A DNA stretch of 64,000 bases from Heterodontus francisci. Its lineage: Eukaryota. The stretch covers positions 37,026,694 through 37,090,693 of the forward strand of contig NC_090398.1 of NCBI RefSeq assembly GCF_036365525.1, written 5' to 3'. Below are positions 5,674 through 51,650 of the stretch, piece by piece. Below the pieces are notes generated by a model. It did not search any database and was not told where the DNA came from. It worked only from the letters and a program-made list of their open reading frames with translations. The position numbers and the translations under genes were made by a program. Positions within the stretch are counted from its first letter, which is position 1. Each line of letters starts with the position of its first letter.

Positions 5674-6243
5674 GATTATTATAATATTATTAAAAGAATA
5701 ATATTAGAGTGACGTTCATTTTGGAATATGCGTTGACTACTTATGTGCTCACTATGCTATTATTTTATGTGTTTCTCGTTTTTTTTTAACATCTTTGAAT
5801 AAGGATTCAATTATCTTTTTTTTGCCACGGATGTTATTTGTACTTGCTCTATCTTCTGTTTAATATACAATAATCACATTATCGGTGCTATTTTAAAACA
5901 AAATATATTTTATTTCTAAAACTTGTAAAGAAATCATCACAGAACAATTCAAAATGGACATTTCATAAAGCGCAATAAAGTTCATTTACTTTGAATACAG
6001 TGCTTGCGGTGTTTCACTAGCCTTGGCATTTCAGGTTATATTTACAATGTACATTAGCATTACATGCCACAGATCATTATCTGATGCATACAGCATTTTA
6101 CATGGGTTCCAGCCGCTTGGCATTCTATCGTGGGAAAGTTTGACACAGTGGCCTTCCACATTGAGCCTTTGTGGCGGCTGCACCAAGCTTTAGTGCCTCC
6201 CTCAGCATGTAGTCCTGGGCCTTGGAATGTTCCAGCATTCTAC

Positions 6244-29500: not shown

Positions 29501-29701
29501 TTTACCCATTACCCATATTACCCATTCAAAAGGAAATTGGATAGTGATATGAAAAGCAAAAATGTGCAGGGTTATGGGGACAAAGCAAGAGAATGGAATT
29601 GAGGGAGTTGCTCTTTCAGAGAGCAGGTGGGAACAGGATAGGCCGAATGGCCTTCTTCTTTGCTGTACGATTCTGTGATTTTATGATACACTGTATCTAA
29701 C

Positions 29702-32700
29702 TATTTATTCCATAACCTTTTTTTTCGTTATTTCTCTTACATGGCCTTTATCCTTCAGGTCCATTCTCTTTTTTTGAAGGACGTTTTATACCACAGGTCC
29801 CCTTTATAGGCATACTACATAAATAAATTTACGGAAAAAAACCACAAATAAAACAAAACCAAAATTAAGATATACTTCTCGTATCTATGGTACATCCCAG
29901 CCCCTGCAGTGGCCACTGCTTGTGGAAGGCCTCGAGCAAACCTGCAGACTCCGCATGCTCCTACTCCATGGATACCCTGGTGCAAACATAACCTCGGCAG
30001 AAGGGAAAGCAATCTTGCTGAAGGCCCTCTGTCTGGACCTGTGAACTGCCGCATTTATCAGGGCCAGGAGCAGGTGTGAAAATCCTCCTGTCGACACATC
30101 CGCCTTTGCACCAGGTGTCATATATCAGCAGCTTAGCCTAACGTGCAGCCAACACTTGAGGAGCAACCACCTTAAATATTCCAGCAGGGGTTGCAAACTC
30201 ACAAACTCTATTTAAACACGGCATAGAGACATATCCAGACCATAGAACTTTCAGGCCAGGGAGTCTGTAAACTTATCAAAAGACAATTGCACGGGACTGC
30301 CCTGTGCATACCTTTTCACCCAGGTTGCCGATGTAAATGCAGAGACCTCCTCTGAGGATTGTCCTTGCCACCAGATGGCAACATGGACCGCCAGAATGTG
30401 CCTGGATGTTGGATGATGTCGAGCAATTGGAAAGTGTACAAGAGCAGTCCATAAAGGAACCCCCTCCATGTAGTGAGGAATGACACAGAGGGAATTTCCA
30501 ATAAACTGCTCAGATTGTGTGGGACCAGCTCCTGAGGAGTGTTTCGGGGCCTAGTTCTCATGAGCTGTTCCAGCTAAGTGGGAATCTGCTCAGATGTGAA
30601 CTTTCAACATTCACAAGTCCCCTTAGCACACCTGTCAGTCTGTCCCCAGAGCAGGCCTCTCTTACGAACAGAGCCCTCTCCAGAAGCAGCGGGGGAGAAC
30701 ACTGAGTACAGGTGACCATGTTCCAGACTCTGAATAGACCCTGATAAAAGGTGAACAATTCCCTCAGAGAGGCACAGATAATGGCTATCACCGTCAGCTG
30801 TGTGTTGTCTTGAAGGTAAAACCCTGATGGAAAAAATACATCACCAGTGAACACCTCCTGGCAGGATGCTGAATATATAGGTACCTTTGCATACTCCAAG
30901 ATTGCAGAGTCGCAGCATGGGTGTGAATGCACACCAGAGACTGACCACTCTCTTCAATCAGGAGACTCGGGACCATGGCAGAGAAATAGCATTTCCTCTT
31001 GCTACAGAGGAAATCGACGAGCTTCATCTGAATCTAGGCAGCAAATGTAGGGGGCGGGATGAAAGTGACCAACCGGTCCAAGATCATCGAGGCCAGCAGT
31101 TGGTTTATGACCAGCACTCGGCCCCTGTAGGAAAGCATTCGGAGCAGTCCTGTCCAGTGCCCTCACTGAGTGCTGATTTTCGTCTCCAACATCGGCCGGA
31201 TTGCCAGCCAGGCTTCCTCAGCAGGGCTCAGGTAGACTCGCAGAAAAAGGAGGTGCATAATGCTCCACGCCAAAGGTGCCAGCTCCTTTGTCAGCGACTG
31301 CTACTGACCCACCAGGATTCTGGAACATTTCTTTCAAATGATCTGAATGGTGGACGTAACAGAAAATATCTGATGGCACTGGCATATCGTTTACACGATA
31401 TGTGATCAGTGACCACGAGGGGCACATCGACCGCATAAGCCGAGAGGATGACACACATCCCTGGCCCTTGCAGAGCCAAATCTGCCAGCCTTATGTGAAG
31501 CAGGCACAGGAATGGCTCCACTAGATGGAATTTAATTGGCCGGCATGGGGCATGCCTGATGTACTCCTCTCTCAAAACAAAGATGCACCATCAAAGGCCC
31601 ATTAACTTTTACCAGACACTGTGTGGTGGCGCACGAAAGTCGGACCCGGCCCACAAAATGCAGCCCGAGTCTGAAAACGCACAAAGCCTGGGAAATACAT
31701 TTGTAATCAACTCTGTCTAAAACCTTCTCCTGGACAAGAGGAAGAAAGTTGACCAACGGTCCAGTCCTCTGAGAAAAAAGGATTAGCTCACAGGCCAGGT
31801 GGATACTGTCCTGGATGGAGCGACCCAAGACTATGTCGAATTGGTCAGGATAAAAACTGTGGGCCACCACGGAGCCCAGATAGTTGGGCATAGCCTCGGC
31901 AAAATCTTATAATTGTCCGACGGAGATAGACTGAACGCCAGTACTTAAGCAAGCAGAGATTGCCCCTCTTTGGCAGCAGTATAACTGCCCTGGGACACAA
32001 ACCTGGCCTCTCTCCAGTTTCTAAGCTTTCTCCTGGACCCCTGCATAATCGACCACCACGATGTTCCAAAACATCCGAAGGATCTCCACTGCCAACCCGT
32101 CCGGAGCAGGAGACTTGTCCACCGAGGGCTGGAAGTGGATGCCTCTCAGCTCCGCCAACCTAACAGGAGCCTCCAGTTGATTGCTGCCTCCAGGCTGATC
32201 CTCAGTAGGTTCTCTCACAAATCTCTGCACGCATCCTCGGTGGACGAATCCAGAGAGAACAACTTGCATAATAGGAGATTGGACTCCAAGTCGAGCACCT
32301 CCCTTTCCAGATGCTCGACTTCGGCTAACCATTTCTAGCTCGATTTAATTGCGCACTTCTGACATAAGGCACAGACATGAATCTTGTTCATTTCCCACCA
32401 GGTGAAGGCACTGGAGTCAGGATGGAGATATTGCAGAACATCCACCAAGCTGAGAGAGCTGTTCAATTCCCTTAGCTTGTCCACCTTTTCTTAATCACGC
32501 TGGAGGCTGGAGAGAGTCCTCACTTCGAGGATACACCTGAAGATCCCCCACTTAGCCCCACCCCACCGCCACCCCCAGGCACTTATTTATCGAAGCGTGA
32601 TTGAAATGCACTTGGCCTGGGCGCATGCAAATTCATGTCACCCATATAAATGGCAAACTGCAACAAGCCACCTCGGACAAGATCTTTGACTTACAAGACC

Positions 32701-35040
32701 TGCAGTTGAAAGGTCAGGACCAACAAGATAGCCACTCCACTCAAAATAGGAGCAAATAGGGGTGAAGTGACTCATGCAGACCCCGCAATGCCACAACAGG
32801 AACCAGCTGGCTTCGTCGCCCAGACTGGTGCAGTTTTCCTGCAGAAAATTCACTGTATACCTCCCTTCCTGAGGACTGAGAGATTTTGAAATCTGTGGAG
32901 CCTTCCTCAGCAGCCCAGAGAGGAACACCTTGGATTGGTGCTACATGGCTGTTTCCACACCTGCGCCCTTCCCCATTATCTAAACAGCAGCATGGACGGA
33001 TCTAATGAGAAGCGCCAGATTCAAACACTGGTTGAGGGCCAACTGAACTTTACTGTGGAAACCCCTGCAGGTTGCAAGGAAATCCTGATGTTCCACAACT
33101 GGGATGAGATAAAACTAGGTAGGTGGCATGAGGGTGTCCACATCCTCACTGATGAATGATTTCAATTCTTCCTCTGTGCCCAACACCAAGTCCACATCTT
33201 CCTCTGAGTAGGCACCCCAGCGGCCGACACATCCATCATACACTGTGAGGCAGATGACCTGGCCACAGCAGCAGCTTCCGCCACTGTCACGATCGTACCC
33301 ACAAGATCGATGAAGAGGAACCCACTCTGAGGTCCTTTCGGTCAACTGGGCCTATGAGTGCCAGCAGCACAAAAACCTCTCTCCCTCTCCATCCCTCAGA
33401 TAGTGAGCGGACCAGGGGAGAAAGTTGCTACCGACCCTAGACATCCAGCTGGGGCTGGGACGAGAAGTGGAATGAGCAGGCCATTTCCTGCTCACAAGTG
33501 CCCAGTGGCTCAACAGGTGGGGCATTGTTTACATTAACAGCTGGATCGTGTGCATCCTGGGCGGGACCGTGCTTAACCTGGGAGGGCCGGCATTGTGAGG
33601 CCGCGCCCTCATTTCCACCCAGGGAATGCGAAATAGCAGCAGATGAAGAGACTTCTCCAGGAGCGTTCCCAGGCTCCCCCGCCACAAGTAGGTCTCCACT
33701 CACTCACCGAGCCAGGACTGAGGTTTATCCTGTCTTCACCTCCCCTAGATGCTGCAGGTGGTGGAGAACCAGCTCACCTGGTATGAAAGTCAAAATATCT
33801 GAAAAGGTGACCCACAATGCAGTGGTCTCCACTGGCATAAGAATCCAGTCCACCATGAGTCCCTTATTCAGGCCCAGATAAACCACTTGCTCACTCTTCA
33901 GGCAAAAATACAGACCTCCTGCACATTTTGGGGGAAGCGACAATGGCTGAAGTGCCGACAGCCTTGGCCACTGCTTTTACTGTTATCTGTCTTATAATGC
34001 TTGGTCTGACGTAGCTCATGGCCCAATGCTTTGGTACTTTTGTTTCTAATGGCGACAGTGCAACAGGAGCAGATGCAGCTTCTGTACTAACATGCGATAG
34101 ACGGTCCCCACTACAGAAGCAAAAGGGCTTGCCATGGGTTCGAAGAGCCACCCCAACCCCTAAAAAGATATAAAAACGAGAGATGCTGGAAATTCTCCGC
34201 AGGTCTGGCAGCATAGTGAAGAAAGACGCAGAGTGAACTTTTCAGGTCAGTGAACCTTCATCAGAAATGAAACGTTAACTCTGCTTCTCTCTCCACAGAT
34301 GTTGCCAGACCTGCTGAGTATTTCCAGCATTTCTTGTTTTTATTTCAGATTTCGAGCATGTGCAGTATTTTGCTTTTACCCTAAAAATATATGGTTTGGT
34401 AATGAGAGTAGAGGAGGATAGAGTTGGCAAGGAAAAGTGGAGAATGTGTCTGGGTGGTGGAAGGTAGAGAAAGGCTTGGAAGGACGTTCATTCAACGGGT
34501 TGTTGGTGCACCTCAATGCAGTTAGTACAAGGTTCAAAATGCCAGTTACCTTCCAGTTGGGGCGGTGTGGGGGATGGGTGATGGGGGGGCGTGGCTGTGT
34601 GGGGGCTTCACACTGGTCCGCTGGAGCCACCCGGTAATCTCTCCTTTAATGTCACACCAGGACTTTCTCCATACATGCAGCACTAGCTATCCCCATCATG
34701 GAAGTTGTGGTGGGGCAAGAGCTTCCTGTGTGCAAGATGGAAAAAGCACAGGACAGGTATCAGGGCTCACTCGAGATTTTGGCAACCCCACCCGTGATTC
34801 TTCTGGCCTCTCTCCCTCTTCCAATAGTCCAAACAAAGACTGCTCCAGGTGCTGAAAACCCGCCTATCCAAAAGGAATTGCAGCCTTCTTGCCTCCCCAG
34901 TAGATGCGAGCACCTGCACACTTAACAGATATCTCCACTCATCGATTATTGCTCCGCTGCAGTTGCTATTCCATTAGCTGCTACAAGTGCTGCTGCTTCA
35001 ATTGCTTGCAGTCAGGAAGAACTCCAAATGCACCAAACAA
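29702..35040 (-). mobile_element. Tx1-clade non-LTR retrotransposon A, decayed
   Basis: Minus ORFs DKSPAPDGLAVE, LLPKRGNLCLLKYWR, LDRVDYK, LVEPFLCLLHIRL..ILSAYAVDV; ORF1-like ILTFIPGELVLHHLQHLGEV (33725-33943); 3' UTR similar to element B. Confidence 0.8.
34172..34378. mobile_element. Inverted-repeat Penelope terminal fragment inserted in Tx1 element A, with 14-bp TSD
   Basis: Arms 34171-34244 and 34268-34343 are reverse complements; flanks ccctaaaaagatat (34158-34171) and ccctaaaaatatat (34379-34392). Confidence 0.75.
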
Positions 35041-35209
35041 TCAGAGCTGTAAATGCTCTGGGATTGTCTGATGAGAGAGTGTAGAGGGAGCTTTACTCTG
35101 TATCTAAGCCCGATTTTTTTTCTTTTGTTTTAGCTTTTCTCTGCATCGAACCCCGTGCTGTACTTGCCCTGGGAATGTTTGATGGGAAAGTGTAAATGGT
35201 GCAGCTAAT

Positions 35210-36390
35210 CCCCTGAGGTGAGACTGACTGCCCTTGACATCAAGGCAGCATTTGACCGAATATGGCATCAAGGAGCCCTAGCAAAACAGGAGACAATCGG
35301 AATCGGGGGAAAACTCACCGCTGGTTGGAGTCATACCTAGTGCAAAGGAAAATAGTTGTGGTTGTTGGCATTCAATCATCTGAGCTCCAGGACATCACTG
35401 CAGGAGTTCCTCAGGGTAGTTTCCTCGGCCTAACCATTTTCAACTGCTTCATCAATGATCTTCCTTCAATTATAAGGTTCAGAAGTGGGGATGTTCGCTG
35501 ATGATTGCACAATGTTCAGCACCATTCACTACTCCTCTGTGTTTAAAGCAGTCCGTGTCGAAATACAGCAAGGACTGGACAATATCCAGGCTTGGGCTGA
35601 CAGGTGACTATTAACATTTTTGCCACACAAATGCCAGGCAATGACCGTCTGAAACAAGAGAGATTCTAACTATCTCCCCTTGGCATTCAATGACATTATG
35701 ATCGATAAATCCACCACCATCGACATCCTGGGAGTTACCATTGGCCGGAAACTGAACTGCAGCAGCAATATAAATACAGCGGCTACAGGATCAGTTTGGA
35801 GGCTAGGGGTCCTGCGGTGAGTAACTCACCTCCTGACTGCTCAAGTCTGTCCACCATCCACAAGGACAGGGCAGGAGTGTGATGGAATACTCTCAACTTG
35901 CCTGGATGGGTGCAGCTCCAACAACACTCAAGAAGCTCAACATCATCCAGGATAAAGCAGCCGGCTTGATTACCACCCTATCTGCAAACATTCAATCCCT
36001 CCACCACCGCCGCACAGCGTCAGCAGTGTGTAGTATCAACAAGATTCACTGCAGCAACGCGCCAAGGCTCCTTAGCCAGCAACCTCCAAACCCGTGACCT
36101 CTACCAACAAGAAGGACAGATGCAGCAGGTGAACGGAGACACCACCACCTTCCACTTCCCCTCCAAGCCACACACAATCCTGACTTGGAACTACATCACC
36201 GTTCCTTCACCGTTGCTGTGCCAAAATGCTGGAACTCCCCTCCTAACAACACTGTAGCTTTATCTACAGCACGTGGAATGCAGCGGGTCAAGAAGGCAAC
36301 TCACCATCTATTTCTCAAGGGCAATTAGGGATGAGTAATAAAAGATCCAGCGACAACCACATCGCACGAACGAATATATATATAAAAAAA
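35210..36390 (+). mobile_element. CR1/L2-group LINE (second family) 3' portion
   Basis: ALDIKAAFDRIWH, AGVPQGSFLGLTIFNCFINDL, atgttcgctgatgat (MFADD), 3' tail gggcaattagggatgag...cgaatatata. Confidence 0.85.
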
Positions 36391-36462
36391 TGCCTTGCTG
36401 TTCCTTCCCTGGGAGTGTTTGATGGGGCAGTGCAGAGGGAGCGTTACTCAGCATCTCATTGC

Positions 36463-39400
36463 TGTCTTTCCTTTTCTTCATTTTTTGAAGCCTTTATGCA
36501 CCAGGCCCCTTTTAACTAATATGTCGCGGGGACCTTTAATCCTCAGGCCCCCTTTATATACATTTTATAAAATAACTTTATTGAAATCGAATAACTAAAA
36601 CAAAACTCAAATTAGAATGTCATTCTCAGCATCGATGCTGCAATCCAGTTCCTGTGGTGCCCACCGGTCATGGAAGGCCTCAGGAATACTGGTGGACACA
36701 GCATGGTCCTTCTCCAGGGACACCCGGACGCGAATGTAACCTCGGAAGAGGGGCAGGAATTCAGAGCGGACGGACCCCGTGATGGTCCGCAGCCTAGACC
36801 TGTGAAATGCCACCTTGGCCAAGCCCAGGAGCGCACCAATAAGCGGCTCTTACCAGCCCACCCCACTCTGCATTGGGTGCCCAAAGATCAGGTGCATGAG
36901 GCAGAGGTGCAGATAAAACTTGAGGAGCGTCCCATTTAAATACTTGAACAAAGGCTGTAACCTCGCACATATCATGTATACATGGAACACGGACTCGTCC
37001 AGGCCGCAGAAATTACAGGCAGCCTGGGAGTCCGTGAACCGACTTAAACGTCGACTACACGGGAGTGGCCTGTACAGTACCCGCCATCCCAGGTCCCCAA
37101 TGTAAAGGGGGAGGACTTACGCCTAGTCAGACCTCCACCGGGCTCTCCGCTCACTACCAATCGAAGCACGGATGTCCATGGTCTGTCTGGGTGGCAGAAG
37201 ATGGCAAGGAACTGCAGAGTGTGCAGGGGCAGCCGATACAGGAAACCCCTCTGCGCCGTGTGGCACGGAGGACATTTCCAAGAGGGAACTCAGGTTGCGT
37301 GGGAACGCCACCCGAGGAGGGATTCGGGGCCTGGGTTCAATTAGCAGTTCCAGCTGAGCGGGGTCAGCTCGGCCAGGAGTGCTCTGCAAACCAGTCTCTG
37401 CTCGGTACCCACAGTGAGGGGCAGCCCGGGGCTTCTGCTATTCCACTGCCCATTGGTCCGTACATGGAGCCAGAAGCACAGATTGCCAAGGTGCTCTCCT
37501 CCACCTGCGAGCAAGCGCCCTGACTGGAGGCGACCATGTTCCAGACTCAGAACTGATCCTGGTAAAACACAGGCAACTCCCTCAGAGAGGCACGGCTAAC
37601 ATTCTCTACCGGGAGCTCTGTGTCGTCTTGGAGGCAGTGCCCCAGTGCAAAATTACGTCTTCAGCCTACACCATCTGGGATGATTCCGGACATACAGGTA
37701 TCTCTGCAGGGACCGAAGGTGAAGGTTCGCAGCTCGAGAATCAGGACTGCAGCAGAGACTCAGTGGTTCCTCGTGCCCCAGAAGAAATCGACAAGCTTCT
37801 TCTGGATCTTGGTGGCGAATGCAGGTGGCAGAGCCAAAGTGACCAACCGGTACCTCAGCATCGAGGGTACCATTTGGTTTATCACCAGCGCTCAGCCCCC
37901 TGTAGGAAAGCAGTTTTAACAGTCCTGTTCAGCGCCTTAGCCAACTAGTGACTTTCAACTCCAACTCCTGCCAGTTTACCAGACAGGCATTCTTAGCGGA
38001 GCTAAGGTGGTCTCCAAGATGGAGGAGGCGCGTGGGGCTCCATGCAAAAGGTGTTATTTGCACCGGCAGGGGGTCCACCGCCTCTAACCCACCAGGAGTC
38101 CAGAATATTTCTCCCAATTGATCCTCATGGAGGACGCGGCAGAAAAGGGTCTGCTGGCACTCAAGCATCCTGCACACGTGAACGGGATCTGTGGCCATGA
38201 GGAGCACATCATCAATGTAAGCCGAGAGGACGACTCGTATGCCCAGCCCATGCAGAGCAAAACCCGTTAACCTGCCGCGAAGCAGGCACAGGAATGGCTC
38301 CAGCCAGATGGTATACAACTGGCTGGACATGGGGCATCTCTGACACACTCCTCTCCCAAAGCGAGGGGCCGCTGTCAAGGACCGATTAACTGACGAAACA
38401 CTTTGCGGTGGCATGTAAAAGTTGACCAGGACCACAAAGTTAGCCCGTTACTGAACGTGCGCAGAGTCTCAAAAAGGTATTCATGATCAACTCTGTCCAA
38501 AGCCAACTACTGATCGGGGGAGAGAAAGGCGACCGACAGACCAGTCCTCTGGGAAAGATGAATCAGGTCCCGGACCAGGTGTTTATTGTTCTGGATGGAC
38601 CGGCCCTGGACCGTGTTCGGGGTGGTTCATGTGGGCCAGCACGGAGCCCAGGTGGGGAAACATAGCCCGAGCAAAGATTTTATAATCCAGGCCGAGGAGG
38701 TCGATTGGACGCGAATTCTTAAGCAAGTGCATATCGCCCTTTTTCAGCAGCAGGACGATGCATCTCCTCGGTCGCCTGGCTTTCCCCCAGCTCCCGCACG
38801 TAATCATCCCCCAGGATATCCCAGAATGCCATGGGGAACTCAACGGTCATCTAATCCTTCCCCGGGTAATTGCCCCTCAAGAACTGGTGGAGGGCGCCGG
38901 TCAGCTCTGCCGACATAAGCAGAGCCTTCAATGTTTTGGCGCCCTCCAGGCTGAGCTTCATCAGGTCCTTCCACAAAACTCTGCACGGGTCCTCGCTGAA
39001 TTAATATGGAGAGAAAAACGGACTGTAATATGTACTGACCAGGAGGCCCATTCCATCCGGAACCGTAATGGAGCATCCCTCCTCGGCCAGCAGCTCAACG
39101 GTCTGTTTACAGGCACCCTACCTTTTTTTTCCAGGGAGTAGAAAAAGGGTGAGGCGCTCTCGAAATCGTCCATGATATGGATCTGTGATCTCATGTACGT
39201 GCCTCAGGATCCTACGAGCGGCAGGTTCTTCAGCGCGCCCTTCTCTTTGCCCGCAAAAGCATGACTGAGACAGGAATCCAAGTTGAACACGCCTCCAGGC
39301 GCCCGATCCCGGCTTGCTGCCTTTTGGTCGACCCCTTCGCATACTCCTGACAGAAGACATGGATGTGAGTCTTGCCCACATACCACCATAGCCTCAAGGA

Positions 39401-42400
39401 GGAGAACTCCCCCCCGCCCCGCTTTCTTTTCCACTAGGCGCAGAATCACTCATCATCCAGCAGGCGTTTGTTAAACAGCCACACCAGGTGATGGTCCAAT
39501 CACGACACCAAGCGCCTGGAGGCCATCAAGACACAGGAGACGTACGCTTGTGAAATGTAGAGGCAGTCGATTCGGGACCCTTTTCCTCCAGACCACCATG
39601 TGAAGGCGCTGGAGTCGGTATGGAGATTGCACCAGACGTGCACCTATTTGAAGAAGCTGATCTGATGCCTCAACATGTACACTGAACCTTGGCCGCACTG
39701 GGGACTGGAATGATCCCTCAGCTCGTGGGTACTGTTAAAATCCCCCCTGATGATGATGCACTCACCGATGTCAATAGAGTTCAAAAGAGCGGAGACTTCT
39801 TCAAAGAAACACGCTTGCAACACGCTGGGACTGTGCGCGTTCACGTTCAGAAATTGGAGTGGCATGCTACCCAGGTGAATGACGAGGTGGAGCAAACTGC
39901 CTCCTTGCCCCTTCGGATTTCTGCCTGAAAAGTCGAGGAGATTAAGATAGCCACCCTACTAGAAATAGGGGTAAGGTGACTCATGTCGACTCCATCCTGC
40001 CACTCCAGGAGCCAGATGGCTTCATTTCCCGGAATGGTGTCTCTTTTTCCTGCAGAAGGCTCACCGCAAATCTCCCTTTTCTGAGTACTGAGAGATTGTT
40101 TGATCTACAGAAGGACCCTCTACTGCCATTGATGCTGAGGCTGGCTAAGGTTTTGTTCCTGTCAAAAGTACTTAGAAACCGTCAACAAAATCTTACTGTG
40201 AGGAGGAAGCTGGAATGCATCTGGCCTTCCACTCCACCAGCAACCCATTGAGGAATGTTTTAAACCGGCGCCTCTCAACCAGTTTCATGCCCCGCCTTCT
40301 TGAGGGCGACAAAGACAGACTGGATCATTCGCGCCAGATTCGATGATCATCCAAGGGCCAGCTGAACTTTATTGCAGCAACTCCTGCATGCTCCGAAGAT
40401 GTCCCGGAGTTCCCTGATATGGATGATAGGAGACTCAGTTGAAGGCAAGAGGGAGTCCACCACCTCACTGACGATGCATTTAAGAATATCCGCCGTGCCC
40501 CACAACGGCTCCTCATCCTCCTCCAAGACTTCACCGCCAGTAGCCAACCCACGCACCACAGACTGAGGGGCTGGCTTCCCAACCGCGTCAGCTGGTCTCA
40601 CCACCAGCACAATCCCAGCCCCAGGATCGATGGCGGAGGAGTCCTCTGCCATATCCAGCCGAATATGCGACCGGAGGCAGAGAGAGGAGGCCATCCCCCG
40701 CTCCGCCAGCGCCCATAGACCCAGCTGATGGGAAATTACACAAATTGCCCTCTGGGTAAGGCACATCCCGGGCAGTAGCATCAGTCTCCCATGCAGGACA
40801 CCCGGCCCAGTGGCAGATAGAATATTTGCACCCATCGGGTCCACAGGCTCCCTCACCATGTGAGGGCACCCCCACCTCTGGAGTCGCTGTGATTAGAGGG
40901 GCATCCCCGGCAGCCCTTCCGTTGCGAGGAGCAGTCAGTTCCCGCCCAGGGCTCGAGGCCTTCATGGAGCCTCAGGACCCGCGCCAGCTGATGGGCCTTG
41001 CAACTCACTGACCTCGTCAGAGCATGGATGTCTCCTCCACTTATTTTGGTAGTGGTGCAGAGTCTCAGTGACCTTCATTTCAGCAGCGACCTCTGCTTCT
41101 CCCTTCGTGCTCCCTTGCCCAGTTTCTTGGGACCTAGCTCAGCCTTGGGGTAGGTGGCCTCCCCTGGTTCAATCGTAGCGCTGACGTCAGGCTCAGGTCC
41201 ATTTTTTGTGCCCGGGGGCACACCTTCGCGTGTTTTTTTTTGCGCCTTGCCTTCCATCCACAAGGGCGGGTCTCCACCTCCCCACAGGAAGCCTGGAAGT
41301 CTATGGCCTCTGGAACCGCCGATGTGGTGTCTGATGGAGGTGTGGTGTGAGCGGGAGGAGGTGCATCAGCGCCAACCTGGGCTCCTGAGGTGGAGTTGGA
41401 GGCCAGAAGGTTGCAGCAGTTATTATGAACGTGCCCCACCCCCTTACACTGCGCCCTGTCCGAAGTCCAGCAGACGAGGTAGGCTGGCCTCTGGAATTTC
41501 ACATTGAAATAGCCTTCTAAGACCTCTTCCCGCGCCAGCTGCATAAAGAGCTGGTGGCGGAAGGAGTAGACATGCCAGAGGCTGTTCTCCACAAGACCGA
41601 GCCGGCCTATGGGAGACACCTGAACTTACCTCCCCCCAGATTGTGCAGATGGGGGAGGAGTAGCTTCCTGGGAATGAAGCACGGGACGTTTGATAATATG
41701 ATCATATGTACACTATCCCCTGGAGTGTCCACCAGCAGGAAAGCCCTCACCACAGCGAGCCCCTTACTCTGTGCCAGAGTCATGGCCACTCGGACTTCAG
41801 GATGACACAGCCATCTTGTATATCTTCGAGGCTGCATCCATGGCCGAGGGGTCAACAACCTTGGTTATTGCCTTTATGAAGGCCTCAATGGACTTGTTGG
41901 GGTGGGATAACTCTTCACCCCAAGGAAGGATGTTATTAATTTAACGGGTAATGGGACTACATGGGCAGCCACAGAGGCTGCAGCTGCATGGTAGCGCCCC
42001 CCTCCCCCACGCCCCCCAACCCCCACCGGTGAAGGGCGTGCTGATGGTCTAAAAGCTAAACCCACTTTGAGTTCTCGGTTGCAAATCGAACAAACTGAAA
42101 GATTCACAAGGGATACTTAATTAAAAAAAAGCAGGTTCGGGGCGAGGCTTAGGATATCGAGGAGAGGAAGAGGCAGGCGGTAAGGGATGTCTTGCTCTCA
42201 GGAGGTGGTGCACACAGCACACTTAAAATAGTCTTTGCAAGTACTATTTGTTTTCTGGTCTTTTGATTAGGGTAGACGTCTTCAACTGGGTCAGCTGAAG
42301 CTGCTAATGCACGATTTATCCCCTTCCATCTCTTTAGCCGGGCAGCATCAGCTGACCAAGCCTTAACAATTGGGGTTGTTTGCGGGGGTTGGGAGTGAGT

Positions 42401-42717
42401 TTCCATGTGTGCTTGTTGCAGCAGCAGAGATGCCTACAGAATTGGCAGCTGCACCCCTTGTTGTTCCGGCCATTTGTTCCTCACCCAATGGTCCAAATCA
42501 GAACACAATTCCGGTGTTCGGTATCCACCTCCAAACAAAGCCTTGTTTCCAACAAATCTCAGTTTCTTCACTGCAAAGGTGATTATTGTTCAATCTTTCC
42601 CTCAGATTGATAGTTATTGCTCTCCCTCTGCTCTGTGTAGCTCCTCTCTCCAACCAGCTCTATCAGCTAGGCTCGTTGCTGCAATCAGCTCTCAGCACCT
42701 CCCATCAAGCAACAGCC
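36463..42717 (-). mobile_element. Tx1-clade non-LTR retrotransposon B, near full length but decayed (ORF1 ~40250-42000, ORF2 ~36620-40160)
   Basis: ORF1: IILSNVPCFIPRKLLLPHL, HVYSFRHQLFMQL, CKGVGHVHNNC zinc knuckle. ORF2: LASLSINGS, IIRGDFN, LLKNSRPIDLLGLDYKIFARA, GVCQRCPMSSQLYTIWLEPFL, LSAYIDDV, C-terminal CNFCGLDESVFH. Confidence 0.88.
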
Positions 42718-44269
42718 AACCCCGTGCGGTACCGGTCCTGGAAGTGTTTGATGGGGACAGTTACGCGGGAGCTTTGCTGTGTATCTAACATTGGCCAAGA
42801 GATAGAAGTCAGGGAATTGTTGTGAATGATTGTTTCTCAGACTGAGGGAAGATATACAGTGGTACCTCCAATTGTGCACCGCAAGCTCCCACAAACAGCA
42901 TTGAGATAAGGAGCATTACCTTGTTTTCGTGGTTTTGGTTGTGTGATAAATATTTCCCAGGACATCAGGGAGAACTTCATCAATCCCAAAAGGGCACGCT
43001 GAGCGACTGGTATATTTCTGTGCTGATACATTCTGTGATTTGGTGAGTTCATAGAGGACTGCCCGAAATCTCATTTAAAACCTGTTTCCTGATGTTTGTG
43101 ATTATCCTTCTTAGCTTAACCCTTGGAGTCCAAGTATTATTCTACTCAGTTTAAACCATCCAAGATTTCACAATCCTCCTCCTTACCCACAATGTCTGCA
43201 TAGCGCCCCCTCCCTTTTATGGAAATTTAATATAACTTCAAATTTTTCATATGACTCAAAACTTTGGAAATGTAGTAAAGAGGGAAGAGAATAGTCGCAG
43301 ACTTCAGGAGGCCATTGACAGTCTCGTGAATCGGGCAAACACAAGGCATGTTAATTTCAGCGCTGAGAAATGTGAAGTGATGGATTTTGGAAGGAAGAGG
43401 CAATATAAATTAAATGTTACAATGTAAAAACGGGTGCAGGAACAGAGAAACCTGAGGTTCTAGCCTGTCTACATTACATACAGGAGTTGGCAGTGTCTCT
43501 CTCGGATTGTCTCTCTATCTATCCTTTTCGTTCATTGTTTTTCTCTTTCAATACCTATCCTGACGGCTGTGTGTTTTTTTCTATTTTAAAGTTTCAATTT
43601 GTTATCAGGATGCTGTCAGATAAAAGTAGTTTTTCATCCTGAGATTTGTGAAGAATTTTCAGGGGAAATGTGTCAGAAGCTGTTTCCATTTAGATATTCC
43701 TGCATTGATGAACTGTCAGTTATCTGTGCAGACAGGATATAGGGGTGTTTGATTGGAACTGAAGATTTTGGTTGATTGAATAGGGTGTGAATTAGATTGT
43801 GGATTGCATTCCTGAAGGTCGTTGCAGTAGATGTCCTGAGAGAATTTTGTGGTTTAGAAATGTCTGACTAACATGATACATGACAGACAAGAATGGGGAC
43901 TGTGGTCAAAAGCTGAGACAGTCATGTGATACTGATTTACCTGCAAGTACCTTTTTCCATTCCACTTTTTCTGAATCGATTTCCACTGGCCCAGCTTTAT
44001 GCCCTGAAGCTAAGTGTAGAACTCACCCATTTCATGTTGGCCTTGCTATGTACAGGCATAAAAAAAGTTCTCCTGAATGCATTTGAAGAATTGTGCATCC
44101 TTGATACGTTTTACACTAGTCTCAGTTGTCAATGCAATGGTTGTGACTGCATTACACCCTTTCTTTATTTATATTGCACATGGCCCTGTCTCTGCTATAA
44201 AATGAGTGAGTTGTATGTCGGTCTGCCCTCTATTTTACGTACATAGAGAGAATATTCCATTTTGTACAC

Positions 44270-45477
44270 AAGATCATACTAAATAGGTGCTGGAGTTGGC
44301 TATTCAGCCCCTCGAGCCTGCTCTTCCTTTCAATATGTTCATGGCTGATCTGATCGTGAACTCAACTGCACATTCCTGCCTGCCCCCCATAACCCTTGAG
44401 TCCATTGTCGACCACAAATCTGTCTAACGCAGCCCTGAATATCTTCAATGAACCAACCTCCACTGCACTCTGGGGAAGATAATTCCAAAGTCTAACCAAC
44501 TGCTGGGAGAAAAGAAAAGTTCTTCTCATCTTTGTCATAAATGGGAGGCCATTAATGTTTACCTGCGCCCCCTAGTTCTAGACTCCCCCACAATGAGAAC
44601 ATCCTCCCAGCATCCACACTGTCAAGCCCCTCAAAATCTTATCTGTTTCAATAAGATCTCCTCTCATTCTTCTAAACTCCAATGAGTATAGGCCCAACTT
44701 GCTCAACCATCCCTCATAAGACAACACCTTCATCCCAGGAATCAGCCAAGTGAACTATCTCTGAACTGATTCCAATACATCCAGGCCTGACCATTTATCC
44801 ACTTTCAAAGATACCACACACCTTAATATTTCCCTCTCACTCTGTTTATCCCATCCAATATTTCATGCTCCTCTTTAACTACAATGTCTGCATCATTCCC
44901 TCCGCTTTTATGAGGACAGACACAAAGTATTCATGAAGTGCCATGCTCACATCTCCCACCTCCGCACACACGTTCCCTTTTTGGTCTCTTATACTCTATC
45001 CTTAATTATCCTCCTGCTCTTAATGCATTTATAAAACATTTTGCAGTTTCCTTGGTTTTACTTGACAATATTTTTTGCAGCCATCACTTTGCTTTCCTAA
45101 TTTGCATTTTAGTTTTACCCCTGGACTTTCGACACTCTTCTCGGATTTTTGTGGTATTAAACTCCCGGTATCTGACATAACCTTCCCGTTTGTGTCTTGT
45201 CCTATCCAGTTAGCTCCTTGATATCCAAGGGGCTCTATATTTGGGACTCTCAGCCTTTTTGGCTTTTTACGAACATATTTGTTCTCAACCCTCATTAACT
45301 CTCACTGCTCTGACACTGATTTACCTTTAGGTAGCTGTTTCCAATCCACTTTGCTTAACCCTCTCCTCCCTGGAACTACCATCTCACGTGCACCCGCTGA
45401 AGGGCCCTCACATCCATCCAAACGTGTAGTGACCAGAACTGGATGCAGTATTCCAGTTGTGGCCCAAACAGAGTTTT
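44270..45477 (-). mobile_element. Old CR1 fragments; the last one is the host of the young CR1 and resumes at 50412
   Basis: CR1 3'-end reverse complement (ggagttggctattcagcccctcgagcctg, cctctcattcttctaaactcc) and ccagaactggatgcagtattccag (rc of LEYCIQFW). Confidence 0.7.
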
Positions 45478-46318
45478 GGTGACTGCAGCGTGGATAGCAA
45501 CGGAGGTGCGTGAACGGGCTTACAGATTTGAAGTCAATTTCAGCGTAAGTTTAAAAGTGAATTCCCTTTTGTTTTCGGAGGACCAGGGGACTGCTGGGTA
45601 AGGAAAAAGGTATATATTTGTGTGGTTTAGAATCTCTTTCTTTTAGTTTCGGTGACTGCAGCGTGGATAGCAACGGAGGTGCGTGAACGGGCTGACAGCT
45701 GTGAAGTCAATTTCAGCGTAAGTTTAAAAGTGAATTCCCTTTTGTTTTCGGAGGACCAGGGGACTGCTGGGTAAGGAAAAAGGTATATATTTGTGTGGTT
45801 TAGAATCTCTTTCTTTTAGTTTCGGTGACTGCAGCGTGGATAGCAACGGAGGTGCGTGAACGGGCTTACAGCTGTGAAGTCAATTTCAGCGTAAGTTTAA
45901 AAGTGAATTCCCTTTTGTTTTCGGAGGACCAGGGGACTGCTGGGTAAGGAAAAAGGTATATATTTGTGTGGTTTAGAATCTCTTTCTTTTAGTTTCGGTG
46001 ACTGCAGCGTGGATAGCAACGGAGGTGCGTGAACGGGCTTACAGCTGTGAAGTCAATTTCAGCGTAAGTTTAAAAGTGAATTCCCTTTTGTTTTCGGAGG
46101 ACCAGGGGACTGCTGGGTAAGGAAAAAGGTATATATTTGTGTGGTTTAGAATCTCTTTCTTTTAGTTTCGGTGACTGCAGCGTGGATAGCAACGGAGGTG
46201 CGTGAACGGGCTTACAGCTGTGAAGTCAATTTCAGAGTAAGTTTAAAAGTGAATTCCCTTTTGTTTTCGGAGGACCAGGGGACTGCTGGGTAAGGAAAAA
46301 GGTATATATTTGTGTGGT
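45478..46318 (+). repeat. 173-bp tandem monomer array (~4.9 copies) in the CR1 5' UTR
   Basis: Unit ggtgactgcagcgtggatagc... starts at 45478, 45651, 45824, 45997, 46170; only a few substitutions between copies. Confidence 0.97.
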
Positions 46319-46328
46319 GGCTGTACCC

Positions 46329-46352
46329 GAGACACTACACGTGTAGTGTCTC
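46329..46352. promoter_or_regulatory. Perfect 24-bp palindrome centred on E-box CACGTG
   Basis: gagacactacac|gtgtagtgtctc. Confidence 0.7.
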
Positions 46353-46517
46353 CCACCCACCCTCCTCCTCTAACCATAAAAAAAGGACTCTGGTGTGTTG
46401 ATAAGGTAAGCTTTTTATTTAGGAAGTTCTGTCCGTTGGATTGCTAACCTAACAAGTTTTGACTTTTTGTTTTTTTTGGTTTTTCAGTAGATTTGTTGGG
46501 AATTTGGAATAGTGGGA

Positions 46518-47436
46518 ATGGAGGTTAAGGCAGTTGCATGTTCCTCCTTCAGAATGTGGGTCGCCAAGAGTGTCCCTGCTGACTGCATCTGTGGGAAGTG
46601 CACCCAACTCCAGCTCTTCGAGAACCGCGTCAGGGAACTGGAGCTGGAGCTGGATGAACTTCGGATCATTCGGGAGGCGGAGGAGGTTATTGAGAGTAGT
46701 TATGGGGAAGTAGTCACACCTCAGGTAAAAGAAGTAGGTAGATGGGTTACCGTCAGGGGAAGGAGAGGGAACCAGCAGGCAGTGCAGGGATCCCCTGTGG
46801 CCGTTTCCCTCAACAACAGGTATACCGTTTTGGATACTGTTGCGGGGGACGACTTACCAGGGGTAAGCAATGGGGTACAGATATCTGGCACAGAGTCTGT
46901 CCCTGTTGCTCAGAAGGGAAGGGGGAAGAGGAGCAGAACATTAGTCATTGGGGACTCCATAGTTAGGGGAACAGATAGGAGGTTCTGTGGGAACGAGAGA
47001 GACTCACGGTTGGTATGTTGCCTCCCAGGTTCGTGATGTCTCGGATCGTATTTTTGGGATCCTTAATGGGGAGGGGGAGCAGCCCCAAGTCGTGGTCCAT
47101 ATAGGCACCAACGACATAGGTAGGAAGAGAGATGGGGATTTAAGACAGAAATTTAGGGAGCTAGGGTGGAAGCTTAGAGCGAGAACAAACAGAGTTGTTA
47201 TCTCTGGGCTGTTGCCCGTGCCACGTGATAGCGAAGCGAGGAATAGGGAGAGAGAGGAGTTGAACACGTGGCTGCAGGGATGGTGCAGGAGGGAGGGTTT
47301 TGGTTTCCTGGATAATTGGGGCTCTTTCTGGGGTAGGTGGGACCTCTACAAACAGGATGGTCTTCACCTGAACCAGAGGGGTACCAATATCCTGGGGGGG
47401 AGGTTTGCTAGTGCTCTTCTGGGGGGTTTAAACTAA
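46518..47436 (+). pseudogene. CR1 ORF1 (zinc finger, coiled coil, SGNH esterase), frameshifted at ~47030
   Basis: CSSF..CGKC, LENRVRELELELDEL-like zipper, GDSIVRG (block I), HIGTND (block III), DGLHL (block V), split over ORFs 46512-47036 and 46987-47436. Confidence 0.88.
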
Positions 47437-47507
47437 TTCAGCAGGGGAATGGGAACCTAAATTGTAGTGCCAGTGTACAGGATGTTGAGAGTAGTGAGGT
47501 CAGGGAT

Positions 47508-50318
47508 ATGGTTACAAGGACGCAAGAGGGCACTGGCAAGCAAGAACCTGGTTTAAAGTGTGTCTATTTCAACGCCAGGAGCATCCGGAATAAGGTGGGT
47601 GAGCTTGAAGCATGGGTTGGTACCTGGGATCTCGATGTAGTGGCCATTTCGGAGACATGGGTAGAGCAGGGGCAGGAATGGATGTTGCAGATTCCGGGAT
47701 TTAGATGTTTCAGTAAGAACAGAGAAGATGGTAAAAGAGGGGGGTGGGGTGTGGCATTGTTAATCAAGGAGAGTATTACAGCGACAGAAAGGACGTTTGA
47801 GGACTCGGCTACTGAGGTAGTATGGGCTGAGGTTAGAAACAGGAGAGGTGAGGTTACCCTGTTGGGAGTCTTTTATAGACCTCCGAATAGTTCCAGAGAT
47901 GTAGAGGAAAGGATAGCGAAGATGATTCTCGACAGGGGTGAGAGTAACAGGGTAGTTGTTATGGGGGAGTTTAACTTTCCAAATATCGACTGGAAATACT
48001 ATAGTTCGAGTACTTTAGATGGGTCAGTTTTTGTCCAGTGTGTGCAGGAGGATTTTCTGACACAGTATGTAGACAGGCCAACCAGGGGCGATGCCACATT
48101 GGATTTGGTACTGGGAAATGAACAAGGCCAGGTGTTAGATTTAGATGTAGGTGAGCACTTTGGTGATAGTGATCACAATTCGGTTAGGTTTACCTTAGCG
48201 ATGGGCAGGGACAGGTATATACCGCAGGGCAAGAATTATAACTGGGGGAAAGGAAATTATGATGCGATTAGGCAAGATTTAGGATGCGTAGGATGGGGAA
48301 GGAAACTGCAGGGGATGGGAACAATCGAAATGTGGAGCTTATTCAAGGAGCAGCTACTGCGTGTCCTTGATAAGTATGTACCTGTGAGGCAGGGAGGAAG
48401 TTGTCGTGCGAGGGAGCCGTGGTTTACTAAAGAAGTTGAAGCGCTTGTCAAGAGGAAGAAGAAGGCTTATGTTAGGATGAGACGTGAAGGCTCAGTTAGG
48501 GCGCTTGAGAGCTACAAGCTAGCCAGGAAGGATCGAAAGGGAGAGCTAAGAAGAGCAAGGAGAGGACACGAGAAGTCATTGGTGGATCGGATCAGGGAAA
48601 ACCCTAAGGCTATCTATAGGTATATCAGGAATAAAGGAATGACTAGAGTTAGATTAGGGCCAATCAAGGATAGTAGTGGGAAGTTGTGTGTGGAATCAGA
48701 GGAGATAGGGGAAGTGTTAAATGAATATTTTGCGTCAGTATTTACAGTAGAGAATGAAAATGTTCTTGAGAATACTGAGATTCAGGCTACGAGGCTAGAT
48801 GGGATTGAGGTTCACAAGGAGGAGGTGTTAGCAATTTTGGAAAGTGTGAAAATAGATAAGTCGCCTGGGCCAGATGGGATTTATCCTAGGATTCTCTGGG
48901 AAGCTAGGGAGGAGATTGCAGAGCCTTTGTCCTTGATCTTTATGTCGTCATTGTCGACAGGAATAGTGCCGGAAGACTGGAGGATTGCAAATGTTGTCCC
49001 CTTGTTCAAGAAGGGGAGTAGAGACAGCCCTGGTAATTATAGACCTGTGAGCCTTACTTCGGTTGTGGGTAAAATGTTGGAAAAGGTTATAAGAGACAGG
49101 ATTTATAATCATCTTGAAAAGAATAAGTACATTAGAGATAGTCAGCACGGTTTTGTGACGGGTAGGTCGTGCCTCACAAACCTTATTGAGTTTTTCGAGA
49201 AGGTGACCAAACAGGTGGATGAGGGTAAAGCAGTGGATGTGGTGTATATGGATTTCAGTAAGGCGTTTGATAAGGTTCCCCACGGTAGGCTATTGCAGAA
49301 AATACGCAAGTATGGGGTTGAAGGTGATTTAGAGCTTTGGATCAGAAATTGGCTAGCTGAAAGAAGACAGAGGGTGGTGGTTGATGGCAAATGTTCATCC
49401 TGGAGTTTAGTTACTAGTAGTGTACCGCAAGGATCTGTTTTGGGGCCACTGCTGTTTGTCATTTTTATAAATGACCTGGAAGAGGGTGTAGAAGGGTGGG
49501 TTAGTAAATTTGCAGATGACACTAAGGTCGGTGGAGTTGTGGATAGTGCCGAAGGATGTTGTCGGGTACAGAGAGACATAGATAGGCTGCAGAGCTGGGC
49601 TGAGAGATGGCAAATGGAGTTTAATGCGGAAAAGTGTGAGGTGATTCACTTTGGAAGGAGTAACAGGAATGCAGAGTACTGGGCTAATGGGAAGATTCTT
49701 GGTAGTGTAGATGAACAGAGAGATCTTGGTGTCCAGGTGCATAAATCCCTGAAGGTTGCTAACCAGGTTAATAGGGCTGTTAAGAAGGCATATGGTGTGT
49801 TAGCTTTTATTAGTAGGGGGGTCGAGTTTCGGAGCCACGAGGTCATGCTGCAGCTGTACAAAACTCTGGTGAGACCGCACCTGGAGTATTGCGTGCAGTT
49901 CTGGTCACCGCATTCTAGGAAGGATGTGGAAGCTATGGAAAGGGTGCAGAGGAGATTTACTAGGATGTTGCCTGGTATGGAGGGAAGGTCTTACGAGGAA
50001 AGGCTGAGGGACTTGAGGTTGTTTTCGTTGGAGAGAAGGAGGAGGAGAGGTGACTTAATAGAGACATATAAGATAATCAGAGGGTTAGATAGGGTGGATA
50101 GTGAGCGTCTTTTTCCTCGGATGGTGATGGCAAACACGAGGGGACATAGCTTCAAGTTGAGGGGTGATAGATATCGGACAGATGTGAGAGGTAGTTTCTT
50201 TATTCAGAGCGTAGTAAGGGCGTGGAACGCCCTGCCTGCAGCAGTAGTAGATTCGCCAACTTTAAGGGCATTTAAGTGGACATTGGATAGACACATGGAT
50301 GAAAATGGAATAGTGTAG
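47508..50318 (+). CDS. CR1 ORF2: apurinic-like endonuclease plus reverse transcriptase, 936 aa open
   Basis: YFNARSI, ISETW, YRPP, GEFN, SDH; KSPGPDG, NYRPVSLTS, YMDFSKAFD, PQGSVLGP, FADD, LEYCVQFWSP. Confidence 0.95.
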   Translation: MVTRTQEGTGKQEPGLKCVYFNARSIRNKVGELEAWVGTWDLDVVAISETWVEQGQEWMLQIPGFRCFSKNREDGKRGGWGVALLIKESITATERTFEDSATEVVWAEVRNRRGEVTLLGVFYRPPNSSRDVEERIAKMILDRGESNRVVVMGEFNFPNIDWKYYSSSTLDGSVFVQCVQEDFLTQYVDRPTRGDATLDLVLGNEQGQVLDLDVGEHFGDSDHNSVRFTLAMGRDRYIPQGKNYNWGKGNYDAIRQDLGCVGWGRKLQGMGTIEMWSLFKEQLLRVLDKYVPVRQGGSCRAREPWFTKEVEALVKRKKKAYVRMRREGSVRALESYKLARKDRKGELRRARRGHEKSLVDRIRENPKAIYRYIRNKGMTRVRLGPIKDSSGKLCVESEEIGEVLNEYFASVFTVENENVLENTEIQATRLDGIEVHKEEVLAILESVKIDKSPGPDGIYPRILWEAREEIAEPLSLIFMSSLSTGIVPEDWRIANVVPLFKKGSRDSPGNYRPVSLTSVVGKMLEKVIRDRIYNHLEKNKYIRDSQHGFVTGRSCLTNLIEFFEKVTKQVDEGKAVDVVYMDFSKAFDKVPHGRLLQKIRKYGVEGDLELWIRNWLAERRQRVVVDGKCSSWSLVTSSVPQGSVLGPLLFVIFINDLEEGVEGWVSKFADDTKVGGVVDSAEGCCRVQRDIDRLQSWAERWQMEFNAEKCEVIHFGRSNRNAEYWANGKILGSVDEQRDLGVQVHKSLKVANQVNRAVKKAYGVLAFISRGVEFRSHEVMLQLYKTLVRPHLEYCVQFWSPHSRKDVEAMERVQRRFTRMLPGMEGRSYEERLRDLRLFSLERRRRRGDLIETYKIIRGLDRVDSERLFPRMVMANTRGHSFKLRGDRYRTDVRGSFFIQSVVRAWNALPAAVVDSPTLRAFKWTLDRHMDENGIV

Positions 50319-50411
50319 GTCAGATGGTTTCACAGGTCGGCGCAACATCGAGGGCCGAAGGGCCTGTACTGCGCTGTAATGTTCTAAATTCTAAATTCTA
50401 AAATTCTAAAT

Positions 50412-51650
50412 TAAAAAGGTTCAGCACAACTTCCATGTTTTGGTACACAACGCCTCTCTTCATGAAGCCTAAGATCCCATATGGTTTGCTGACTACTCTC
50501 TCAATATGACCTGCCACCTTCAAAGTTGTATGCACAAGCACGCCCTGCACACTTCAATGAGAATATATTGTCTCTCCCTATCTCTTCTGCCAAAATACAT
50601 CACCTCACAATTTCCCCGTATTAAATTGCATCTGAAACTTGTCTGCCCATTCTGCTCGCCTATCTATGTCATGTTGCATTCGATTGGTATCATCGTCGCT
50701 GTTTGTATCTCCTCCAAGTTTCGTATCATTGGCAAATATTGAAATTTTACTCTGTGTTCTGAAATCCAAGTCATTTATATATATCAGAAAAAAATGACAG
50801 TGGTTCTAGTACTGACTATTGGGGAACACCGCTGTCTGATATCTTCCAGTCTGTAAAACAACCATCTACCTCGATTCGCTGTTTTCTGTCCTTTTGCATT
50901 TTTCTTATTCAAGCTGACACTGGCCCTCCTATTCCGTGAGCCTCAGTTTTGTTAACCAGACTTTTATATTTTCCTTGGTCAAACATTTCTTAAAATCCAT
51001 TTAAATCCATTGCATTCCCTTAATCAACCTTCTCTGTTACTTCGTCAAACAATTCAATTAGATTAGTCAAGTACTTTCTGCCTTTTACAAATCTATGCTG
51101 GCTTTCCATCATTAACTCGAATACCTCCAAGTGCCTGTTAATTTTTTTTCTCTTCCAAGTATTTACTTAACTCTCCTTTTGAAATCGACTATTGAATCTG
51201 TATCGGCCACTATCATGCATTATATTTCAATCAGAAGCACTTGAGTAAAAGAAATCTTCATGTCTCCTCCGTTTTTTCTTTGCCAATCACCTTCAATTGG
51301 TGCTCCCTGGTTATCAATCCTTCAGCCATTGGAAACAGTTCCTCTTTATTCCCTCGATCTAAAGCTTCCATAATTTTAAACATCTCTATCAAATCTCCAT
51401 TTACGCTTCCCTGTTCTAAAGACAACAACCCCAGCTTCTCTATCAGCGTAACTGTAATCATCTCATCTCTGGAATCATTCCAGTAAATCTCTTCTGTGCA
51501 TTCACCAAAGCCTCAAAGTCCTTCATAAAGTGTGGTCCCAGAACTGGACACTATCTTCCAGCTGGGTAAAAAACTATTATCTAGCATCGCTTCCTGACAT
51601 TTATATTCTCGACCTCTGTTTATAAAGGCCAGGATCCCATCTGCTTTATA
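50412..51650 (-). mobile_element. Old CR1 fragments (host continuation and a further piece)
   Basis: Minus ORF EKLGLLSLEQGSVNGDLIEMFKIM; ccagaactggacactat. Confidence 0.7.

Follow-up and report, generated by a model that had tools for sequence, protein, structure and literature searches.

The stretch analyzed here, a 64-kb region of the Heterodontus francisci genome (64,000 nucleotides [nt], referred to as the window), carries two decayed full-length long interspersed elements (LINEs), elements A and B, which lie on the minus strand at one position of a dispersed 69-bp minisatellite. This repeat is the preferred target of the LINE family, and the targeting is real and leaky. Elements A and B are very probably old copies of a Tx1L-like family preferring the junction AACCCCG|TGCTG, which would likely be reached through a loosely specific nick combined with pairing of a 7- to 8-nt copy of the target at the 5′ end of the element.

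The repeat junction and the two elements

An assignment of the family to the Tx1 clade, as a Tx1L-like member, was supported by the coding sequence of young genomic copies. An intact open reading frame 2 (ORF2) contained the Exo_endo_phos (PF03372) and RVT_1 (PF00078) domains, and its best named characterized match was the ORF2 of Xenopus Tx1L (UniRef YTX2 entry, P0004), with 50% identity over 100% of the length. Elements A and B both aligned along ORF2 to an intact genomic copy. Close partial matches were found in a stingray and in a Heterodontus francisci protein (93% identity across 28% of the query), suggesting that the host is a cartilaginous fish. An ORF2 of 1,251 to 1,252 codons was present in 6 of 20 long loci, and upstream of it lay ORF1, open over 694 codons and decayed in A and B. 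A zinc knuckle in ORF1 was weak, its E of 0.039 falling short of the curated cut-off. The poly(A) tail, 5′ truncation and target-site duplication (TSD) typical of the clade were also found. The exact 3′-end pattern gave 592 matches on the reverse strand of this 6.0-Gb genome, and since these come from one strand alone, roughly 1,200 such 3′ ends would be expected; several copies were 99% identical to the young intact copy L167.

Element B was located by tblastn and alignment at 36465-42717 (minus strand), between a decayed repeat unit with its junction on the left (36393-36464, plus strand; 86% identity to an array unit) and, on the right, the 5′ word AACCCCG and the next unit (42718-42789, plus strand; from the sequence and a repeat match). 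Its ORF2 (40181-36610) and ORF1 (42074-40196) were recovered with 21 stops in 7 tblastn pieces. Element A, located in the same way at 29702-35038 (minus strand), has a double T-tract at its 3′ end, where it meets the unit end ctgtatctaac (29691-29701, plus strand). Its ORF2 (32915-29880) and ORF1 (34163-32908) were recovered with 27 stops in 11 tblastn pieces. The last 70 bases of element A aligned to a known 5′-end type and were followed by a decayed AAT..CAG word and then by the next unit (AATCAG and unit, 35039-35112, plus strand; alignment and repeat match); element A is thus full-length. The ORF2 identity to L167 was 73.5% for element A and 81.5% for element B, and that between A and B was 66.5%; the two are distinct old lineages, not near-identical copies. 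Loci L211 and L212 took no part in these comparisons. A palindromic short repeat of 180 bp in the 5′ part of element A (34167-34346), detected by self-BLAST and as a gap relative to intact copies, is a later insert with relatives at 6242, 10986 and 19156.

Matches to an array unit from elsewhere in the genome were found at 35046-35112, 35132-35202, 36393-36456 and 42718-42789, with 85-87.5% identity and no further significant match in the 64 kb. The four flanking stretches cited in the original prediction were all present where they had been placed, and its claim of two Tx1 elements antisense to the repeat at one position was upheld by the minus-strand ORF1 and ORF2 remnants and by the unit matches on the flanks. 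Both insertions are real, and a third had been missed: at 35114-35155 (minus strand) a poly(A) tail and 24 nt of the unit, without a LINE body, are inserted at the target position with a junction score of 32 to 34, where only 0.13% of the background reaches 8. The rest of the interrupted unit lies at 35156-35202 (plus strand; repeat match). Two details were corrected. The unit is 69 bp rather than about 68 bp, and the break, previously set at tatct/aacccc, lies 7 nt further right: the poly(A) tail adjoins AACCCCG, an AACCCCG-like word stands on either side of the insertion, and the break is AACCCCG|TGCTG.

The left match of element A is 11 nt long with a score of 6, and this junction is weak taken alone because 0.5% of 1,500 random window positions reach the same score. 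The missing left part of the unit was searched for in the window and not found. Five paralogues of the A insertion (L092-L096) were 72-73% identical to the window copy and had the left flank in common. In the three of them examined at length the remaining unit part was found upstream of a CR1-like fragment, and it was therefore deduced that the unit left of element A is real and was split by a later CR1-like insertion. The five loci (on C21, C863, C572, C1129 and C28) are near-identical blocks carrying the 3′ part of the insertion, and represent one ancient insertion that was duplicated and, more recently, amplified.

The right flank of element B was collinear over about 2.7 kb with a locus on C45, where two younger copies are inserted at the corresponding unit. 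Neither is a paralogue of element B, and the pattern agrees with repeated independent use of one site. The older C45 copy had been considered as a paralogue and was rejected, being 77.9% identical to B versus 91.6% to the young copy. The stretch 42718-45478 and its C45 counterpart (L167 and L206) form an old segmental duplication of about 70-80% identity which begins at the repeat unit, with the two younger elements standing in place of element B.

Genome-wide, the exact filled junction (AACCCCR followed by seven T) gave 2,236 matches and the exact empty junction 2,191, each against 0 for the reversed control. The empty-junction matches, among those listed, were concentrated near the ends of large contigs. 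The edges of 20 arrays fell at varied phases with unrelated flanks and no common termini; 13 arrays started from unique DNA, 3 from a T-tract and 3 from an element junction, and 1 was unclear. Arrays also occurred without elements. The 69-bp repeat was found in tandem in five further organisms (C-G), in which the consensus past the junction continues as the unit, and because of this the repeat appears to be independent of the LINE family; in organisms A and B, both of which have the element, the consensus past the junction is T-rich. The repeat is strongly conserved across organisms C-G (runs X8 and X10-X13), with most contigs at least 95% alike. No coverage of the element at 85% likeness was obtained in these runs, which is no evidence of its absence. 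No RNA record with the element was among those listed. Against Rfam, the repeat came close to the threshold of no family, the best E being 0.63.

Insertions on and off the target

The first two genome searches carried the unit in the query and were hence biased to unit-adjacent copies; they were used for junction anatomy only and not for frequencies. Once the unit had been left out of the query, 27 of 30 5′ ends (a set in which element B and a probable duplicate pair are counted) continued into an AAC/AAT word and then into the unit (16 ends) or the T-tract of another insertion (11 ends). The other three were broken by later insertions, and none of the 27 complete ends adjoined unrelated DNA.

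Of the 39 copies in a positional census in which flanks were not used for selection, 15 lay on target and 20 off target, and 4 were unclear; the census required an exact 26-mer, covered only C1 and part of C2, and had its classes assigned by script and by eye. It represents 39 of 40 regions; L304 was left out, as were another two places on C1 that lie within L282 and four places listed for C2. Full-length copies accounted for 7 of the 15 on-target and 0 of the 20 off-target copies (Fisher p=0.001). The other 8 of the 15 on-target copies were 5′-truncated. TSDs at truncated copies were 9 to 15 bp and were locus-matched at L214, L220, L229, L269, L282 and L306; at L214 and L282 they reproduced local variants of the unit, and these insertions therefore entered pre-existing units.

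The proposal that the repeat is the target was thus borne out by the fixed junction, the 27 5′ ends and the truncated copies lying in units with TSDs. The description of the family as target-specific holds for all seven clearly full-length census copies, but since 20 of the 39 copies lie off target, target-preferring is more exact. Unrelated flanks, named in the original prediction as an argument against targeting, were found at no complete 5′ end and at about half of the copies once short truncated ones are counted. The other concern, that the unit might belong to the termini of the element itself, applies to the 7- to 8-nt 5′ word and not to the whole unit, given the truncated copies in units with true TSDs, the off-target copies without a unit and the element-free arrays.

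At off-target sites, TSDs of 9 to 15 bp were recognized by script in 18 of 21 sites tried (15 census, 3 additional). T(1-3)G stood directly past the nick in 16 of these 18 and C at −3 in 11, with little else in common. Repeat sequence, ranging from about 11 to 292 nt (L302), was present inside the TSD and between two T-tracts at 8 of the 15 census misses and 1 of the 3 additional ones, and none of these repeat-carrying misses had repeat outside the TSD. At L190 a T-tract and about four units lay within a 12-bp TSD without any LINE sequence. The repeat inside off-target TSDs is a 3′ transduction of the target to new places. As a source of arrays transduction is minor, because only 3 of the 20 arrays start with a T-tract. 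Some related structures were also seen. Past the 5′ end or first unit of L122, L127 and L316, T-tracts at the target position ran into unrelated sequence that is not from a LINE and may have been copied from host mRNA. In L063, L065, L066 and L324 short pieces were stacked before a 3′ end, each consisting of a T-tract and the outermost 5′ sequence of another element, likely through read-through from head-to-tail arrays.

The word of 7 to 8 nt at the 5′ end was found to go with the element subfamily and not with the local target. Of the words before TGCTG at 62 full-length 5′ ends, 21 began with AAT and 23 ended in CAG. At filled 3′ junctions each of the two counts was 3 of 154, and array junctions had the AAT start in 14 and the CAG end in 6 of 254; the lack of independence among arrays and duplicated loci weakens these counts as evidence. 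One element type had AATCCCAG in 6 of 7 copies, and the youngest subfamily had AACCCCG, identical to the target, in 11 of 13; both forms of the word recur in the window, AAT..CAG in element A and AACCCCG in element B. In 11 of 22 full-length copies with both ends, judged by eye, the 5′ word agreed with no 3′-side word. Being bound to the subfamily and without a 3′-side counterpart in these 11 copies, the word likely travels as part of the element and is not a true TSD. Variant counts spoke neither for nor against the whole first unit past the 5′ end being element cargo.

Proposed mechanism and alternatives

The hairpin loop of the endonuclease was 7 residues long, most of them glycine, in all 31 genomic matches and in the Heterodontus protein, and element B has kept this short loop; 11 other homologues have 11 residues. 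In the account of Tx1L given in PMC1950540, the loop has 11 residues and contacts DNA downstream of the nick, and nicking is almost confined to the element's own target site. The shorter loop may therefore loosen target specificity.

On the model of target-primed reverse transcription, ORF2 would nick the plus strand immediately ahead of T(1-3)G, leaving a 3′-OH to prime on the poly(A) tail. Full-length complementary DNA would terminate in the AAYCCCRG word and be completed efficiently only where this word pairs with the target, so that full-length copies would lie on target and short copies could be joined anywhere. Where transcription ran past the tail and polyadenylation took place within the repeat, the transcripts would export pieces of units or whole units, and such exported units may have founded a minority of the arrays. 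Each full-length 5′ end would rebuild a junction open to re-use, giving rise to head-to-tail stacks. A further step, which we advance tentatively and regard as somewhat doubtful, is that the aim has two tiers: a weakly specific, short-loop endonuclease would nick widely, the target mimic at the RNA 5′ end would let only on-target events end full-length, and misses would export the minisatellite as new landing pads, an arrangement that would have lasted through about 27% divergence.

Several observations weigh against the reading of a preferred junction completed by 5′ pairing. Half of the census is off target, the left junction of element A within the window is only 11 nt, and a T-tract start was seen in as few as 3 of the 20 arrays. 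Some full-length copies (L316, L314 and L320) had only a degenerate motif on the left, and a TSD beyond the 5′ unit was sought in L316, L314, L318 and L320 and none was found. The census also splits by zone, with 15 copies on and 2 off target at the repeat-rich ends and 0 on and 18 off target elsewhere. Because on- and off-target copies divide by chromosome zone, chromatin or local abundance, rather than 5′ pairing, could be the source of the full-length bias, and zone is the main confounder of the proposed mechanism.

The alternative that survives best, though it was judged unlikely, is that specificity for the repeat junction lies in the endonuclease alone, as in Tx1L, the misses being ordinary errors and the 5′ word a mutated TSD. 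The near-exclusive nicking of Tx1L at its target (in PMC1950540) favors this, as do several misses that look like the target (L234 and L290) and the identity of the word with the target in the youngest subfamily. However, the off-target sites have little in common beyond T(1-3)G and the C at −3, the word is bound to subfamilies and differs from the 3′ word in half of the copies compared, and the aiming loop has four residues fewer than in Tx1L.

A more distant alternative, to which we attach very little probability, treats the repeat as mainly a by-product of the LINE, with units carried at the 5′ and 3′ ends and the appearance of targeting due to co-transport. The 3′ transduction of units was seen directly, a unit or stack adjoins nearly all full-length 5′ ends, and the left flank is unique in a few full-length copies, all of which would suit co-transport. 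It is contradicted by the truncated copies that break units with TSDs copying local variants (L214 and L282), by the lack of an element or T-tract at the edge of most arrays, by the tandem repeat in the five further organisms, with the unit past the junction where organisms A and B are T-rich, and by the collinearity of the right flank of element B with the C45 locus, whose two younger copies are unrelated to B. That two LINEs merely lie by coincidence beside a common repeat is hardly credible. The repeat is plentiful near chromosome ends, but coincidence is refuted by the single-base register, the one orientation, the 2,236 exact filled junctions where the control gave 0, and the 27 of 30 5′ ends.

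Relation to known elements and other features of the window

Tx1L of Xenopus laevis is likewise a two-ORF LINE with an apurinic/apyrimidinic endonuclease and a reverse transcriptase (RT), and shares 50% ORF2 identity with the shark family. It has a fixed insertion site within the repeated sequence Tx1D (as described in PMC4494074 and PMC1950540). The shark family is not Tx1L proper, as is evident from the array edges at varied phases with unrelated flanks and from the 7-residue loop. Its target is a dispersed 69-bp minisatellite without common flanks or termini (20 arrays), whereas that of Tx1L is a DNA transposon; the loops have 7 versus 11 residues; and about half of the short shark copies miss.

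Other target-specific families of the clade include Keno (U2), Kibi and Koshi (microsatellites), Tx1-Mar (Mariner) and satellite-targeting families, satellites appearing among the target classes in the Fig. 3 legend of PMC4494074. Like the shark family, these prefer one multicopy sequence, some are leaky, and tandem stacking occurs (in the text of PMC4494074). A family is termed target-specific there when one sequence type makes up more than 20% of flanks (PMC4494074); here the repeat flanked 15 of 39 census copies and 27 of 30 5′ ends, and independent insertion was attested by the 8 of 15 on-target census copies truncated in the target with matched TSDs. The text of PMC4494074 mentions no shark family and no 69-bp unit ("shark" has 0 occurrences), and its supplement may list shark or satellite targets. 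No description of this pairing of family and target was found in the literature (0 papers for a 16-mer of the unit), with Repbase outside the comparison. Target-specific Tx1 families, including satellite-aimed ones, are thus known; for this class the target appears to be new, and leaky aim, 5′ mimic and target export together set the family apart as a variant. Passages of the zebra shark preprint refer in general terms to tandem repeats at the ends of chromosomes.

The export has precedents in the site-specific LINEs R7Ag and R1Bm and in L1, for which 3′ transduction is known and in which, as proposed here, read-through RNA brings downstream DNA into new insertions (according to the text of PMC7265360). 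Unlike R7Ag and R1Bm, the shark family also inserts off target, and for this reason the transduced target arrives where it was absent before. Here a LINE is seen to move the repeat that it targets, which provides a route for minisatellite spread.

R2, an element with a restriction-like endonuclease and a ribosomal DNA target, uses a 5′ annealing mechanism. Similarly, target-like sequence at the 5′ end of the shark RNA likely guides the 5′ junction; unlike R2, the homology is only 7 to 8 nt and has drifted by subfamily. Co-transcription of R2 with its target is said in the text of PMC4494074 to reinforce site-specific integration. Target choice in the Tx1 clade is usually ascribed to the endonuclease. 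Numerous young copies, hits as well as misses, a shortened loop and, in Tx1L, a near relative on which biochemical work has been done make the shark family a natural test of the shares of the enzyme and of 5′ RNA-DNA pairing in the aim. The window extends this view back in time, as one identical base was used by two lineages whose divergence from the young copies is 18% and 27%.

Two further features were noted in the window. An 84-bp tandem repeat of 6.7 copies at 2019-2567 had no clean minus-strand reading frame. A young LINE lies at 45472-50412 (plus strand), with a GDSL esterase domain in its ORF1 region, a 968-codon endonuclease-RT frame and a (TTCTAAA)n tail. It begins with 4.9 copies of a 173-bp unit (99% matches), and these 5′ monomers are similar to tandem promoter units.

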